39,704 bases of DNA, taken from Escherichia phage K1F. Shown here piece by piece: positions 7,230 to 15,938 of the stretch (position 1 is the stretch's first letter; each line of letters begins with the position of its first letter). Under the pieces are notes generated by a model. It saw only the letters and a list, made by a program, of their open reading frames with translations, made no database searches and was not told the origin of the DNA. The stretch lies in sequence record NC_007456.1; one strand, written 5' to 3'. The position numbers and the translations under genes are program-made.

Positions 7230-7487
7230 ATGTCTAAGAACTTAATGTTCAACCGTTATTCTAATACCTTCCACCTGTCCAACAACCCGTTCGCTTGCAT
7301 TAAGCGCAACGAGAAACTTGGCTACTTCGGGAAGGCCGTTAAGCTGTCACCTACAGTCTATGCTCTGATTACTCCTGGAAAAGCTGAAGAGGCTCGCCAG
7401 AAGCGTGAGACAAATGTGCCCGTGGTCTACACTAAGTGGCCTCGCGTTCGGCTGTTTGTTGAGGTCGTAAAGGAGGTGTTCTTATGA
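7230..7487 (+). CDS. Hypothetical protein (85 aa), gene 1.4-1.6 position
   Basis: ORF with AAGGAG SD downstream of promoter 7183. Confidence 0.6.
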   Translation: MSKNLMFNRYSNTFHLSNNPFACIKRNEKLGYFGKAVKLSPTVYALITPGKAEEARQKRETNVPVVYTKWPRVRLFVEVVKEVFL

Positions 7488-7930
7488 CTACTTATGATAA
7501 TATGATTATCAAGCTAATCGATATGAACGATGGTAATCCAGACCATTTATATAACTGTTCCTTCAATTGTGCTGGAGTTCCTTGTAACATCTGCCCCGCT
7601 AAGGATGATGACGATATGACCTTAGGTGAAATCCGAGCGATGGACCCGCGTAAATCTCATCTGAATAAACTTGAGGTAACTCCTACAGATGACCAGCCTT
7701 CCACTGAATCAATCGAAGGTGTCACTAAGCCTTCCCATTACATGCTGTTCGACGACATTGAGGCTATCGAAGTGATTGCCCGTTCAATGACTCGTGAGCA
7801 GTTCAAAGGGTACTGCTTAGGGAACATCCTTAAGTACCGCCTACGCGCTGGTAAGAAAGTCAGAACTTGCTTACTTAGAGAAAGCCAGGGCGAAAGTTGG
7901 ATTCTATGGGGAACTGTACGAGAAACATAA
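7484..7930 (+). CDS. gp1.7-like protein (DUF3310-like motifs); C-terminus appears to continue in +1 frame to 7952
   Basis: Motifs KPSHY...IEAIEV...FKGYCLGNILKYRLRAGKK; after AAGAAAG (7853-7859) the +1 frame reads SELAYLEKARAKVGFYGELYEKHKDKCYDA*. Confidence 0.6.
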   Translation: MTTYDNMIIKLIDMNDGNPDHLYNCSFNCAGVPCNICPAKDDDDMTLGEIRAMDPRKSHLNKLEVTPTDDQPSTESIEGVTKPSHYMLFDDIEAIEVIARSMTREQFKGYCLGNILKYRLRAGKKVRTCLLRESQGESWILWGTVRET

Positions 7931-7941
7931 GGATAAGTGCT

Positions 7942-8169
7942 ATGACGCGTGAAGAACTTCAAGCTGCATCGGCGAAGCGTAGAGCGCAAAGATTTTATCG
8001 TGCATACAAGGCGCTGCGTAAGGGTATGTCGATGTTCAAATTAGGACACAGGGAGTATTGTGATAGCGACCTCCTACCGTTTGCTTATAAGAAGACACCT
8101 AGTCTGATTATCAAGGTAGAGGAGTATGAATATTCTGATGACTGTGTTATGGTGAACCGCTATGCTTAA
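7942..8169 (+). CDS. Hypothetical basic protein (75 aa)
   Basis: ATG 7942 with AAGGATAAG SD; in frame with track ORF 7897..8169. Confidence 0.5.
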   Translation: MTREELQAASAKRRAQRFYRAYKALRKGMSMFKLGHREYCDSDLLPFAYKKTPSLIIKVEEYEYSDDCVMVNRYA

Positions 8170-8266
8170 CGATGTTCTGTACTTCGGCTTAATTTGCGCT
8201 GGAGTAGGCGCGTTACTTCGCTTAATGTATTGGGAGATAGAGGTGGAATATGGTAAAACCAAGTGA
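8162..8266 (+). CDS. Possible small hydrophobic ORF (34 aa)
   Basis: ATG overlapping previous stop; weak SD. Confidence 0.25.
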   Translation: MLNDVLYFGLICAGVGALLRLMYWEIEVEYGKTK

Positions 8267-8348
8267 GTGGTGCCGTGAGATGTATGAGAAGACGCTCAAC
8301 CCGGACTACATCACGTTATACAACCAATGGAAGGAGCGCGGTTTATGA
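8250..8348 (+). CDS. Possible small ORF (32 aa)
   Basis: GAGGTGG SD; stop overlaps gene 2 start (ATGA). Confidence 0.35.
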
Positions 8349-8503
8349 CTGAGGTTGAGAAGAAATACATCGTGGAGCTTGAGGGTCGCGTTCAGTCCTT
8401 CGAGGTTCCGTTGTATGCAAAGTCTCTTGAAGAGGCTACCCTGAAGTCCCAAGAGTATGAGGACGCTGGGTTTGTGGTCGGACGGATTCGTCCTGAGACC
8501 TAA
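8345..8503 (+). CDS. 2: Gp2-like inhibitor of host RNA polymerase (52 aa)
   Basis: ...[17 protein letters not shown]...GFVVGRIRP resembles T7 Gp2 (FEVPIYAETLDEA...GFEVTRVRP); AAGGAG SD; not in ORF track (<60 aa). Confidence 0.75.
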
Positions 8504-8521
8504 ACTATCACTGTAGGACAG
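8499..8521 (+). promoter_or_regulatory. Phage RNAP promoter copy 4, variant (CCTAAACTATCACTGTA|GGACAG; G at -3)
   Basis: Consensus match except -3; overlaps gene 2 stop; upstream of SSB. Confidence 0.6.
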
Positions 8522-8560
8522 ACGTCCAGTTCGTAACTTTAAAATAGGAGATTTACACCG

Positions 8561-8614
8561 ATGGCTAAAGAGCAACTGAAGACTTTCACCACTCCGGTAG
8601 CTGGCATAGTTTGA
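8561..8614 (+). other. 17-codon leader ORF in frame with SSB gene, ended by TGA at 8612
   Basis: ATG 8561 has strong SD (AGGAGA, 10-nt spacing); same frame as ATG 8624; MAKEQLKTF resembles T7 gp2.5 N-terminus MAKKIFTS. Confidence 0.4.
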
Positions 8615-8623
8615 GCCTTACGC

Positions 8624-9259
8624 ATGGCTGACAAAGCAGACACCAAGTTTAACGAGCGTGGTGAGCATAAGGTTAACCTGACTTTCAGTCTGGATGACCC
8701 GAAGGTCCGTAAGATGATTGATGTCTTACAGAAGATTCACGACGATGCGTATGCGAAAGCACTTGCAGACCACGAGAAGAACCCACCTCAGGTTCAGCGT
8801 GGCAAGAAGCCTATTGAACCACGAGAAGGCGACATGCCGTGGATTGAGAATGGTGACGGTACTGTTACCATGAAGTTTAAATGCTTCGCGTCTTACCTGA
8901 AAGACGGCAAGTCCGAGCCTATCGTATTACGGTTCTACGACACCGATGCTAAACTCATCCGTGACGTCCCGAATATTGGCGCTGGCTCAAAGCTGAAGGT
9001 CAAGTTTAAAGTCCTGCCGTTTAAGTGGAACGCTGCGACTGGTGCAAGCGTTAAGCTCCAACTTGAGTCCTGCCTTCTGGTAGAACTGAAGGAGTGGAAA
9101 GGTGATGGTGCTGGTGGCGATGGTGGCTGGGGTGACGATGAAGACCTCGGTACTGGCTACAAAGCGTCAACCGATGGTGACTTCGGGTCTGATGACTTCG
9201 GTGACGATGGTTCCGAAGGTGGTGACGACTCCAACTCTGGTGGCGATTACGACTTCTAA
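8624..9259 (+). CDS. 2.5: Single-stranded DNA-binding protein (T7 gp2.5 homolog) with acidic C-terminal tail ending DYDF
   Basis: KVNLT...HEKNPP...RGKKPIEPREGDMPW...NGDGT...KFKCFASY...VKLQLESCLLVEL and acidic tail ...GGDYDF as in T7 (...DGDF). Confidence 0.9.
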   Translation: MADKADTKFNERGEHKVNLTFSLDDPKVRKMIDVLQKIHDDAYAKALADHEKNPPQVQRGKKPIEPREGDMPWIENGDGTVTMKFKCFASYLKDGKSEPIVLRFYDTDAKLIRDVPNIGAGSKLKVKFKVLPFKWNAATGASVKLQLESCLLVELKEWKGDGAGGDGGWGDDEDLGTGYKASTDGDFGSDDFGDDGSEGGDDSNSGGDYDF

Positions 9260-9711
9260 TGGCCCAATGGTCTGCAAAACGGGGGCACTCTGTGGGTGCC
9301 TACCGCTCTGGACTTGAAGCCAAGAACCAGCAGTGGCTGGAACAGAACGGCGTCAAAGCGGAGTACGAAAGCCATTATATCAACTATGTGATTCCGGCTT
9401 CCGACCACAAGTATACACCAGACTTTATCCTTCCTAACGGTATCATCGTGGAGACCAAAGGAATCTTCGCAGTGGAAGACCGTAAGAAGCACCTTATGGT
9501 ACGAGAACAGCACCCAGAGTTAGACATCCGGTTCGTGTTCTCAAGTTCCCGCTCCAAGTTATACAAAGGGTCTCCGACCACGTATGGCGCATGGTGCGAA
9601 AAGAACGGCTTTAAGTATGCCGATAAGTTCATCCCGGTTGAGTGGCTGCGAGAGACGACTGTACGTCTGCCTTCCGGCATTCTCATCCCAAAGAAAGGAG
9701 TTAAGAAATGA
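9259..9711 (+). CDS. 3: Endonuclease I, Holliday-junction resolvase (T7 gene 3 homolog)
   Basis: YRSGLE...YVIPAS.H.YTPDF.LPNGI.VETKG...DRKKHL.VREQHPELDIRFVFSSSRSKLYKGSPT.YG..CEK.G. Confidence 0.93.
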   Translation: MAQWSAKRGHSVGAYRSGLEAKNQQWLEQNGVKAEYESHYINYVIPASDHKYTPDFILPNGIIVETKGIFAVEDRKKHLMVREQHPELDIRFVFSSSRSKLYKGSPTTYGAWCEKNGFKYADKFIPVEWLRETTVRLPSGILIPKKGVKK

Positions 9712-10178: not shown

Positions 10179-10630
10179 GTAAGGTGCAATTCAACCCACG
10201 GTCCCGGACTGACGCTATCTTCGTTCACTGTTCGGCTACCAAGCCAGAGATGGACATCGGGGTAGAGACCATCCGTATGTGGCACAAGCAGCAGGCTTGG
10301 CTGGACGTAGGCTACCACTTTATCATCAAGCGTGATGGTACTGTGGAAGAGGGTCGCCCGGTAAATGTCGTAGGGTCACACGTTAAGGATTGGAACTCCC
10401 GGTCTGTAGGCGTCTGCCTTGTAGGTGGAATCAACGCTAAGGGTCAGTTTGAAGCTAACTTCACTCCAGCCCAGATGAACTCCCTGCGCAACAAGCTGGA
10501 TGACCTGAAGGTCATGTATCCTCAGGCAGAGATAAGAGCACACCATGACGTAGCACCAAAGGCGTGTCCAAGTTTCGACTTACAGCGCTGGCTGTCTACC
10601 AATGAACTGGTCACTTCCGACCGTGGTTAA
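10172..10630 (+). CDS. 3.5: N-acetylmuramoyl-L-alanine amidase / T7 lysozyme homolog (gene 3.5)
   Basis: VQF..R...DAIFVHCSATKP...WH..Q.WLDVGYHFIIKRDGTVE.GR...VGSH.KG.N..S.GVCLVGGI...AHHDVAPKACPSFDL.RW...ELVTSDRG. Confidence 0.93.
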   Translation: MVSKVQFNPRSRTDAIFVHCSATKPEMDIGVETIRMWHKQQAWLDVGYHFIIKRDGTVEEGRPVNVVGSHVKDWNSRSVGVCLVGGINAKGQFEANFTPAQMNSLRNKLDDLKVMYPQAEIRAHHDVAPKACPSFDLQRWLSTNELVTSDRG

Positions 10631-12920: not shown

Positions 12921-14936
12921 ATGTTTGACCTTAAGGATATTTGGGGTTCGGACATCGAGACCAACGGTCTCCTTGACACCGTGTCCCAGTTCCATTGTGG
13001 GGTCCTGATTAATGCCGAGTCGAATGAGACCCTTAAGTATGGGGTAGCGCCGATGGTCGGTATCGTCGGTGGCTTCAAAGAGTATGTACAGAAGGTGGAA
13101 GAAATTGCTGCAACGCCTACGGGTATGCTGGTCTTCCATAACGGTATCAACTATGACGTCCCGGCTATAGACAAGCTGAAGCGTTTGTACTTTGGGAAAC
13201 GATTTAACTTCCCGAAACACAAGATGATTGATACCTTGGTGCTGGGCCGCTTGATGTATCCCAACATTAAGTTCTCAGACATGGGAGCGGTGAAAGCTGG
13301 TCGTCTGCCACCTAAGATGATGGGACGCCAGTCTCTTGAGGCTTGGGGCTATCGTCTCGGTGAGATGAAAGGTGAATACAAACACGATTACGTTGCCAAA
13401 TGCAAGGCTGAAGGTATCGAATATAAGGCTGGGGACGAATGGTTGTTCCCGTCTCAGGAGATGCTGGACTATAACGTTCAAGACGTTGTGGTCACACTGG
13501 CGTTGTTCAAGAAGTTCCTGACTGACAAGTATTACTTCCAGTCTGAACAGTTCGCTTTCGAACAGATTTATGCGTTGCGTCTGGAACATGATGCTGCGTG
13601 GACCTGTGCTAAGATGGAACGTAACGGCTATCCAATGAACACAGAGATGGTCGAAGGCTTATATCGTGAACTCACCGTCAAACGTGCAGAGTTGCTGGAC
13701 AAGCTGCGTTCGACTTTCGGTAGCTGGTACGCACCAAAGGGAGGCAAGGAGTTCTTCAGGCATCCACGGACAGGTAAGGACCTTCCGAAGTATCCGAGGG
13801 TCGTGTATCCTAAGGTTGGTGGCATCTTTAAGAAGCCGAAGAACAAAGCTCAACGATTAGGTCTTGAACCTTGTGAACGCGATACGCGAGACACGATGGA
13901 GGGAGCACCATTCACACCTATCACTTACGTTGAGTTTAATCCGGGAAGCGGGGACCACTTAGCGAAAGTTCTGATGGAGCGTGGCTGGGAGCCTGTGGAC
14001 TTCACTGACACCGGGAAACCTGTAGTCGATGACGAGACGTTAGAACATGTTAAGTTACCAGACGCAGAGGCTCAGGCTTGCGTAGAGCTGGTCCGTGAGT
14101 ATCTGGTAGTCCAGAAGCGCATAGGTCAGGCTGCTGAAGGTAAGAACGCATGGTTGAAACTTGTAGGGCCAGACGGACGTATGCACGGTTCAATCAACCC
14201 ATGTGGTGCAGTAACCGGACGTGCTACCCATAGTTCACCAAACATGGCTCAGGTCCCGGCTAACGGTGCTCCGTATGGTGAGACTTGCCGTGGTGCTTTC
14301 GGTGCAGCTTGGAACAAGACGGATGGTAAGCCAGACCCTTGGATTCAAGTGGGTGTGGATGCTTCAGGTCTTGAGCTTCGTTGTCTGGGGAACCGAGCGG
14401 CTCCGTTTGATGGTGGTGCCTATGCGAAGACTGTGGTAGAAGGTGACATCCACTGGGCCAACGCAGTAAACGCTGGGTTAGCACCTAACGTCCCACGCGA
14501 TAAGTCGAACCACGACCATGATGCTTTCCGTAATAACGCTAAGACGTTCATCTATGCGTTCCTGTATGGTGCAGGGGCCGCTAAGATTGGACTGATAGTA
14601 GGCGGTGGTAAGAAGGAAGGTTCAGCTCTCATGAAGAAATTCATTGAGGGTACACCAGCCATCAAAGACCTCAGGGAAGCTGTGAGTAATACGTTAATCT
14701 CTGAGTCCAAATGGGTAGACGGTGAGAATATCGTGAAGTGGAAACGCCGCTGGCTTAAAGGCTTGGATGGTCGACGCATCCACATCCGGTCTCCACACTC
14801 AGCACTTAACGCCTTACTTCAAGGTGATGGTGCGGTAGTCTGTAAGCACTGGATTGTTGAGACAGAACGTATGCTCGAAGAGGCCGGGTATGTCCACGGC
14901 TGGGAAGGAGACTTCGCGTACATGGCATGGGTGCAT
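12921..14936 (+). CDS. 5: DNA polymerase (T7 gene 5 homolog), exon 1 (672 codons, ends ...YMAWVH)
   Basis: 3'-5' exo motif DIETNGL; ...FHNG.NYDVPA...EAWGYRLGEMKGEYK...DYNVQDVVVT...; ORF track stops at TAA 14937-14939, the first intron codon. Confidence 0.9.
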
Positions 14937-15534
14937 TAACATCATGGTGCACATTAAATCTGGTGAACTCGGTGAACTCCTAATGGGACAATACCGAGCC
15001 AAGCCATAGGGAGGATGTATGAGAGGCAAGAAGTTAATTCTTGAGGCCACTGAGACTGGCTGCATAATCCCTACGTCACATAAATTGAATCAGGATGGAT
15101 ACTTCCGAAAGAGGACTAACGGTGTCCTTGAGATGTATCATAGAACTGTATGGATTAAAGCTAATGGTCCAATACCTGAAGGTTTCGAAGTAGACCACAA
15201 GTGTCGTAATAGAGCTTGTTGCAACGTCGAACATCTACAAGTATTAGACCGTGACTCACACTTAGTCAAGACCAACCAAGAGCGATACGCTGCTAGGAAG
15301 CTAGAAGCACGAGACTACTGGGTAGAGACTGGGTGTACAGGAACGAAGTTAGCCGAAGTATTCAATGTGTCGTTCTCAGCCGCCTGTGGGTGGATTAGAG
15401 AGTGGAAGGCGTAGAGACTATCCGAAAGGAGTAGGGCCGTGGGTGAGATTCCCACGTAACCCGAAGCGCCAGACAGTCACCTCAAAGACTGATGATATAG
15501 TCCGACACTTCCAGTAATGGGAGAATACAGAAAG
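14937..15534 (+). mobile_element. Group I-type intron (598 bp) in DNA polymerase gene, carrying an HNH endonuclease ORF
   Basis: Exon 1 ends in U (14936), intron ends in G (15534); P1-like pairing of exon GUGCAU (14931-14936) with GUGCAC (14947-14952); exons join in frame to give WVH|DELQIACRT. Confidence 0.7.
15019..15414 (+). CDS. HNH homing endonuclease (131 aa) within the intron
   Basis: HNH motif EVDHKCRNRACCNVEHLQV; strong SD AGGGAGGA; free-standing ORF. Confidence 0.85.
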   Translation: MRGKKLILEATETGCIIPTSHKLNQDGYFRKRTNGVLEMYHRTVWIKANGPIPEGFEVDHKCRNRACCNVEHLQVLDRDSHLVKTNQERYAARKLEARDYWVETGCTGTKLAEVFNVSFSAACGWIREWKA

Positions 15535-15690
15535 GATGAGTTACAGATTGCTTGTCGTACTCAAGAAATAGCAGAACGTACAGTCGAAATTGCGCAGCTA
15601 GCTATGCGTAAGGTGGGTGAGTTCTATAACTTTAAATGTGTCCTTGATACCGAAGGTAAGATTGGACCAACTTGGAAGGAGTGTCACTAA
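15535..15690 (+). CDS. 5: DNA polymerase exon 2 (51 codons: DELQIACRTQEIAERTVEIAQLAMRKVGEFYNFKCVLDTEGKIGPTWKECH)
   Basis: Matches remembered T7 DNA polymerase C-terminus (...VGCRTEEIAQ...WNFRCLLDTEGKMGPNWAICH); no SD before in-frame ATG 15517. Confidence 0.75.
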   Translation, partial: DELQIACRTQEIAERTVEIAQLAMRKVGEFYNFKCVLDTEGKIGPTWKECH

Positions 15691-15938
15691 TGGCTATGAC
15701 CAAACGTATGCGAGTTTCGTTCTCGCTGGGTGCTGTGTTGTTAACTGAAAACGTGGAGAACTTCAAGAAGACTCTCTGCGAGCTAAGCCGTAAGGTCCTC
15801 AACGGAGAGAAGACCACTGGTTTTGAGCGTAAGATGGTAGAGGTTGGTGTGACTGAAGGTCTGGAAGCTGTAGTCGAACTGGTCTTCAAGAAAAGTATTT
15901 GTCGACAGTCTGAAAGAAGACCTGAGCAACTACTCTGA
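15690..15938 (+). CDS. gp5.5-like protein (82 aa)
   Basis: MAMTKRMRVSF... resembles T7 gp5.5 N-terminus; AAGGAG SD; ATG overlaps polymerase stop (TAATG). Confidence 0.6.
   Translation: MAMTKRMRVSFSLGAVLLTENVENFKKTLCELSRKVLNGEKTTGFERKMVEVGVTEGLEAVVELVFKKSICRQSERRPEQLL

Follow-up and report, generated by a model that had tools for sequence, protein, structure and literature searches.

The SSB encoded by gene 2.5 of bacteriophage T7 (gp2.5) is essential in that phage, and its acidic C-terminal tail is functionally important. In T7, the gene is flanked by gene 2, for the RNAP inhibitor, and gene 3, for endonuclease I, and is served by a phage promoter of its own. Both features are shared by Escherichia phage K1F, of which a stretch of 39,704 nucleotides (the window) was analyzed here over its whole length. 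The corrected K1F protein consists of 232 aa and, between residues 7 and 203, shares about 52% identity with T7 gp2.5; the two proteins share the N-terminal pattern MAK...EPYA[WY] and an acidic tail ending in Phe, which reads DYDF in K1F and DGDF in T7. Compared with T7 gp2.5, nothing functionally distinctive was found in K1F, the sole peculiarity being two one-base discrepancies in the sequence record.

As written, the record shows a 17-codon leader ORF, a TGA stop, and an in-frame SSB ORF. This arrangement resembles termination–reinitiation via a short upstream ORF in geometry alone, that is, in a short ORF driven by a Shine-Dalgarno (SD) sequence and ending in a stop 9 nt ahead of an in-frame ATG that has no SD. 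It differs in that no relative conserves the arrangement and that the "leader" belongs to the SSB itself as its N-terminus. A second described system is programmed recoding, for which the prfB frameshift site, CUU UGA C, serves as a reference. A third comparison is with the compensating indel base-calling errors of early Sanger-era phage genome records, with which the K1F record shares the location in homopolymers of 2–3 nt, nearby pairs of opposite sign, singleton alleles, and broken conserved ORFs. We consider it highly probable that the leader, its TGA, and the SSB start without an SD result from two compensating base-calling errors in the record, and that gene 2.5 of the phage is a plain 232-codon gene.

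Layout of the gene 2.5 locus

The coordinates of the features discussed are collected in Table 1. A scan of positions 8480–8630 revealed one full SD core (AGGAG), at 8546; the only other SD-like match was AGGA at 8515, inside the promoter, and ATG 8624 has no SD-like string directly in front of it. The initial annotation had regarded AGGAGA as the sole strong SD and assigned it to ATG 8561, and this assignment was confirmed. Its description of the plus-strand reading was likewise accurate: ATG 8561 is followed by 17 codons and a TGA at 8612–8614, which lies 9 nt before the in-frame ATG 8624. The string comprising the SD, spacer, and ATG, AGGAGATttacaccgATG, is the listed RBS of the helix-destabilizing protein gene of a Citrobacter Kayfunavirus (PMC4925675).

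The leader had been said to resemble the gp2.5 N-terminus. The comparison bore this out, as MAKEQLKTFTTPVAGIV proved identical (17/17) to residues 1–17 of gp2.5 in AM084414, vB_EcoP_F, EcoDS1, and SH3. The same 17 residues were found in most of the relatives read, with residue 16 alone differing in two cluster members.

Table 1. Features of the gene 2.5 region and further sites at which the record differs (positions in the window)
Feature	Position	Strand	Evidence or remark
Phage RNA-polymerase promoter phi2.5, 5' of gene 2.5	8499..8521	+	23/23 identical to phi2.5 annotated in EcoDS1 (EU734172)
Shine-Dalgarno sequence AGGAGA of gene 2.5	8546..8551	+	9–10 nt 5' of ATG 8561
Gene 2.5 (T7-type SSB), 232 codons after correction	8561..9259	+	AM084414 match, Pfam, PDB
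Apparent 17-codon leader ORF: first 17 codons of gene 2.5 plus a very probably artefactual TGA	8561..8614	+	reads MAKEQLKTFTTPVAGIV
TTT run carrying an extra T (+1 indel)	8610..8612	+	relatives TT; alignment, whole-genome diff, outgroup polarisation
Out-of-frame stretch between the indels, TGA GCC TTA CGC ATG GCT GA	8612..8631	+	relatives: GAG CCT TAC GCA TGG CTG AAC = EPYAWLN
211-codon ORF annotated as SSB (AAZ72976.1 / YP_338102.1)	8624..9259	+	matches Pfam SBB_T7; ATG very probably a frame-shift artefact
Missing A (-1 indel)	8631..8631	+	relatives GAACAAAG, window GACAAAG; alignment, whole-genome diff, outgroup polarisation
Wild-type (error-free) reading across both indel sites			GTTGAGCCTTACGCATGGCTGAACAAAG; window reading GTTTGAG...CTGACAAAG
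Expected tryptic peptide of the uninterrupted gene 2.5 product across both indel sites			TFTTPVAGIVEPYAWLNK
Further window-specific difference, gene 3.5	10294-10297
Further window-specific difference, downstream of gene 10	22285

Two minor observations concern the surroundings of the gene. The T7-like promoter consensus (..TAAACTATCACTATAGGA..) is present in 12 copies, as plus-strand 23-mers at 2474, 5552, 7183, 8499, 10866, 17177, 17206, 19998, 20997, 25321, 32597, and 38852; the copy at 8499 has G for A at one core position (CACTGTAGG), as in EcoDS1 phi2.5. At the other end of the gene, a 71-codon GTG ORF (9102–9317, plus strand), named "gp2.55" in AM084414, runs in another frame over the end of gene 2.5, where the acidic tail is encoded, and over the start of gene 3. 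Lying in the GGT/GAT-rich tail region, it is probably spurious.

Two one-base indels and the conserved reading frame

A megablast search placed the window within Kayfunavirus, with K1F AM084414 (39,699 bp) as the best match (99.8% over the gene 2.5 region). The window itself corresponds to the 39,704-bp K1F record, which we take to be DQ111067/NC_007456 (Scholl & Merril, 2005), in line with citations in PMC6301781 and PMC4925675. Between 8150 and 9600, AM084414 and the window were identical except for two one-base indels. AM084414 encodes a continuous 232-aa gp2.5 (CAJ29357.1; YP_424926.1 in NC_007636); the phage is the same K1F, and the extra T and missing A by which the window's record differs lead to the 211-aa AAZ72976.1. 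A base-by-base alignment with vB_EcoP_F, EcoDS1, SH3, and phiYIO1-1 showed that all four relatives have the AM084414 state at both indels.

The DNA alignment and a position-by-position comparison agreed that the window departs from AM084414 and the relatives by these two indels and not by a substitution in the TGA codon. At the T run, the relatives have GTTGAG and the window has GTTTGAG; at the A site, the relatives have CTGAACAAAG and the window has CTGACAAAG. The relatives accordingly read GTT GAG CCT TAC GCA TGG CTG AAC AAA (V-E-P-Y-A-W-L-N-K), whereas the window reads GTT TGA GCC TTA CGC ATG GCT GAC AAA (V-stop-A-L-R-M-A-D-K). The indels are 19–20 nt apart, with 18–19 nt between them, and six codons are shifted. 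The TGA and the "start" ATG 8624 both result from this shift of one base in the reading register: the ATG is composed of the A of GCA (Ala) and the TG of TGG (Trp). When one T of 8610–8612 was deleted and one A was added after 8631, the sequence became identical to AM084414 gene 2.5 at 699 of 699 positions (8561–9259). An origin of the stop in a TGG-to-TGA point mutation of the Trp codon was ruled out by the alignment, in which the register differs.

The alignment with the SSB genes of related phages that the initial annotation had proposed thus revealed one uninterrupted ORF from the equivalent of ATG 8561, and at the site of the TGA the independent K1F sequence AM084414 has a sense codon, reading GTT GAG. 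A 232-aa gp2.5 from this equivalent ATG is annotated in AM084414, vB_EcoP_F, EcoDS1, and SH3, in keeping with the earlier proposal that 8561 was the original start. The assignment of the SSB start to ATG 8624, by contrast, did not hold; this ATG is a start codon in no homolog and corresponds to GC-ATG-G across the Ala-Trp codons of EPYAW.

The variant was then found to be confined to very few sequences. With a 76-nt query over the site, AM084414 was the best of 217 matching phage records at 97.4% identity, a value that corresponds exactly to the two gaps, and none of the 217 matched the query across the site at 99% or more. The exact variant pattern had no matches in IMG/VR, where the wild-type pattern occurred in 11 contigs. 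An exact-sequence look-up of the 211-aa protein returned one contig only, named Escherichia phage K1F. In the 784-member cluster at 90% identity, all 14 of the 14 other members read were 230–232 aa long and began MAKEQLKTFTTPVAG[ILM]VEPY[AS]WLNK (MAKEQLK...).

Protein family evidence was consistent with the longer frame. The corrected form matched Pfam PF21265 (SBB_T7; gathering cut-off, 27 bits) with an E value of 3.6e-73, scoring 245 bits as the 232-aa form versus 229 bits for the 211-aa form; the profile positions covered were 2–169 and 12–169, respectively, and the shifted stretch (8612–8631) corresponds to approximately the first 10 positions of the profile. The corrected form, as encoded by AM084414, also matched the T7 gp2.5 structure (PDB 1JE5, chain 1JE5_A) with an E value of 2e-54 over query residues 7–203. 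In this alignment, K1F EPYAW lies opposite T7 EPYAY, and in the window as written EPYAW is out of frame. The EPYAW/EPYAY alignment, the Pfam coverage, and the N-termini of the cluster members together indicate that it is in the relatives' frame that the conserved protein is encoded. The K1F SSB ends with an acidic tail, ...GGDDSNSGGDYDF, whose final residue is Phe (DYDF). Judged by these similarities, the corrected K1F gene 2.5 belongs to the T7 gp2.5 SSB family as an ordinary member. An AlphaFold2 model of full-length K1F gp2.5, built from an eight-sequence alignment, had a mean pLDDT of 41.7, which is too low for use.

These comparisons suggest how the record came to its present form. The extra T would put six codons out of frame, the missing A of an AA doublet would bring the frame back, and the shifted stretch would by chance contain a TGA (from the adjoining GTT and GAG) and an ATG (from the adjoining GCA and TGG). 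This chance pair presumably led the annotators to choose ATG 8624 as the start, so that a 211-aa SSB was recorded. The phi2.5 promoter would drive transcription of gene 2.5 in the phage, translation would start at ATG 8561 with the AGGAGA SD, and the product would be an SSB of the T7 gp2.5 type with the OB-fold known from the T7 structure and an acidic tail ending in DYDF.

Error pattern across the record and in MN510331

A whole-genome alignment of the window with AM084414 revealed 16 differing columns, which amount to 15 events: 11 one-base indels and four substitutions. All 11 indels lie in homopolymers of 2–3 nt, and three compensating pairs of opposite sign were observed, at 2243 (+T)/2257 (-A), 8610 (+T)/8631 (-A), and 10294–10297 (-A/+T). 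In 200,000 random placements, three or more opposite-sign pairs within 25 nt never occurred (0/200,000). Indels account for 11 of the 15 difference events, compared with 6–7% between natural Kayfunavirus genomes (Fisher p ~1e-10). The window allele was a singleton in 10 of 10 events, determined with four outgroup genomes for every alignable event and at the protein level for 12631, where gp4 ends in ...DF in 11 of 11 relatives and not in the window.

Seven genes in all are damaged in the window: 2.5, 0.38, 1.15, 1.7, 3.2, 4, and 5.5. In gene 0.38, the +1/-1 pair at 2243/2257 creates a TAG inside its own shifted stretch after 12 codons, as in gene 2.5. Gene 1.15 acquires a stop after 17 codons (5698), the C-termini of genes 1.7 (7856, 7885–7897) and 3.2 (10111) are shifted, and gene 5.5 is truncated (15898). 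In gene 4 (primase/helicase; 12631), the C-terminal DF is replaced by a 22-residue out-of-frame tail, giving 586 aa versus 566, a gain of 20 residues. Two of the three pairs have a stop in the shifted stretch, so the pairing cannot be put down to selection for a restored frame. Given the indel excess, the singleton status of the window allele in all ten events, the compensating pairs, and the seven damaged genes, the genome-wide differences are, as far as sequence comparison can tell, the signature of base-calling error. Exactly such a pattern would result if a base-caller inserted one peak and lost the one beside it, and we infer that sequencing or base-calling, rather than the phage stock, is the source of the differences.

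A second record with the TGA was found using a shorter query. MN510331 (vB_EcoP_PR_Kaz2018; BioProject PRJNA574554), a 2019 Illumina genome of 39,704 bp, has the same coordinates, TGA, and 8624–9259 SSB annotation as the window. Over the whole genome, the two records differ by 1,875 substitutions and 0 indels. The SNPs of MN510331 are real, as 71% of its variant alleles are common to natural relatives; these relatives, which share its alleles, show 71–113 indel events each against the window. At 10294–10297, where the window's pair can be expressed as substitutions, MN510331 is wild-type, and at every site requiring a true indel it has the window's state. The longest stretches over which it is identical to the window measure 607, 428, and 425 bp. 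They coincide with K1F-specific segments that have little or no homolog in the four relatives, which suggests reference fill-in; 7480–8358 and 14934–15540 are K1F-specific segments. The Kaz2018 paper reported the use of Genome Detective, a reference-based pipeline, and 95.28% identity to K1F, and 95.28% is exactly the ungapped identity between MN510331 and the window. With this identity, and with K1F accessions for the window's proteins, the equal length does not make Kaz2018 the source of the window. MN510331 is thus apparently a substitution-only, reference-guided consensus on the window's record. Being derived from this reference, it would inherit the window's indel errors and provides no independent confirmation of the TGA. 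In Logan/ENA de novo assemblies, the reconstructed 232-aa form of the Kaz2018 SSB had no match, and the 211-aa form was found only in its own GenBank record.

A further peculiarity of MN510331 was noted at 15890–15906, where it shows C at the position of the window's extra T (15898), reading TATCTG versus TATTTG in the window and TATTG in the wild type. An odd C in a column that should not exist fits an artefact of alignment or consensus building where the reference forces a column.

Alternative readings and use of the record

Four explanations had been offered in the initial annotation. Sequencing error proved the best one; a point mutation creating the TGA does not fit a lesion that consists of an extra T and a missing A, and neither readthrough nor termination–reinitiation is reflected in the relatives. 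The indels could nevertheless be real in the sequenced K1F stock or in a natural lineage, with ribosomes terminating at the TGA and reinitiating 9 nt on at ATG 8624, and with an SSB lacking its first 21 residues being sufficient for growth. The geometry fits such a process, since a strong SD serves the upstream ORF, the stop lies close before an in-frame ATG, and the second indel restores the frame; the same sequence also occurs in MN510331. However, that record is reference-derived (0 gaps, 1,875 mismatches), and both indels are absent from the independent K1F sequence AM084414. The window's record moreover contains eight or nine further singleton one-base indels in other genes, a spectrum of error rather than of mutation, and its ten other error-like singletons would also have to be real. 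A truncated SSB would lose the conserved VEPYAW and approximately 10 Pfam positions from a protein that the literature on T7 regards as essential. The leader and downstream start do not behave as separate cistrons, there being one continuous ORF in all relatives examined. We therefore regard real indels as very improbable; if they were real, the locus would represent a natural rescue of an essential gene by a compensating frameshift together with a fortuitous de novo restart ATG.

Programmed recoding would instead produce a full-length SSB from ATG 8561, either by readthrough of the TGA at 8612–8614 (Trp, Sec, or near-cognate) or by an RF2-like +1 frameshift at GUU UGA. Such a mechanism would present an in-frame TGA that splits a conserved protein in two, only the upstream portion having a strong SD, and GUU UGA G superficially resembles the prfB site. 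Readthrough, however, would yield X-ALRMAD in place of EPYAWLN, leaving six residues wrong in a motif whose conservation extends to T7, and a +1 shift at the TGA would restore EPYAWL only to leave the frame at the missing A (8631) and meet a stop approximately 23 codons later (...AGG TTA ACC TGA). By itself, no recoding event would thus produce an SSB that works. Conservation characterizes recoding sites, yet this one is a singleton: in the relatives neither a stop nor TGG stands here, the GAG being in a different register, and the in-frame stop is found in no IMG/VR contig and in no independent record among the 217. As conservation is the defining feature, the leader ORF belongs to no recoding or coupling class; very probably it is no genuine feature of the phage, and recoding appears hardly credible, less so even than real indels. 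The pairwise difference is formally symmetric, and on this ground alone the window could be correct and AM084414 and the relatives erroneous or "corrected" by annotation. Four relatives from different laboratories, the 11 IMG/VR contigs, and the other checkable phage records agree with AM084414, and the frame of AM084414 and the relatives yields the conserved protein, which leaves this reading a negligible probability.

With two base-calling errors as the preferred explanation, the leader would carry no biological weight, and K1F gene 2.5 would be an ordinary T7-type SSB gene. The consequences concern curation. The 39,704-bp K1F record, which is a RefSeq entry according to the literature, gives a truncated SSB (YP_338102.1; 211 aa for 232) and carries one-base errors in at least six further genes. 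K1F is widely used in phage engineering and therapy research, and constructs, primers, and MS databases built on this record inherit its errors. They have already propagated, as MN510331 repeats all the indel errors and the truncated annotations; both records merit a curation flag, and AM084414/NC_007636 is the preferred K1F reference.

One further locus in the window deserves mention. The gene 5 DNA polymerase (about 12921–15690) is annotated as two joined pieces in AM084414 and MN510331, and the ORF at 15019–15414, inside the interruption, is called "homing endonuclease" in MN510331. Because the 607-bp segment at 14934–15540 had no blastn match in four related Kayfunavirus genomes, it appears to be a K1F-specific mobile insertion, such as an intron or intein-like element with a homing endonuclease.
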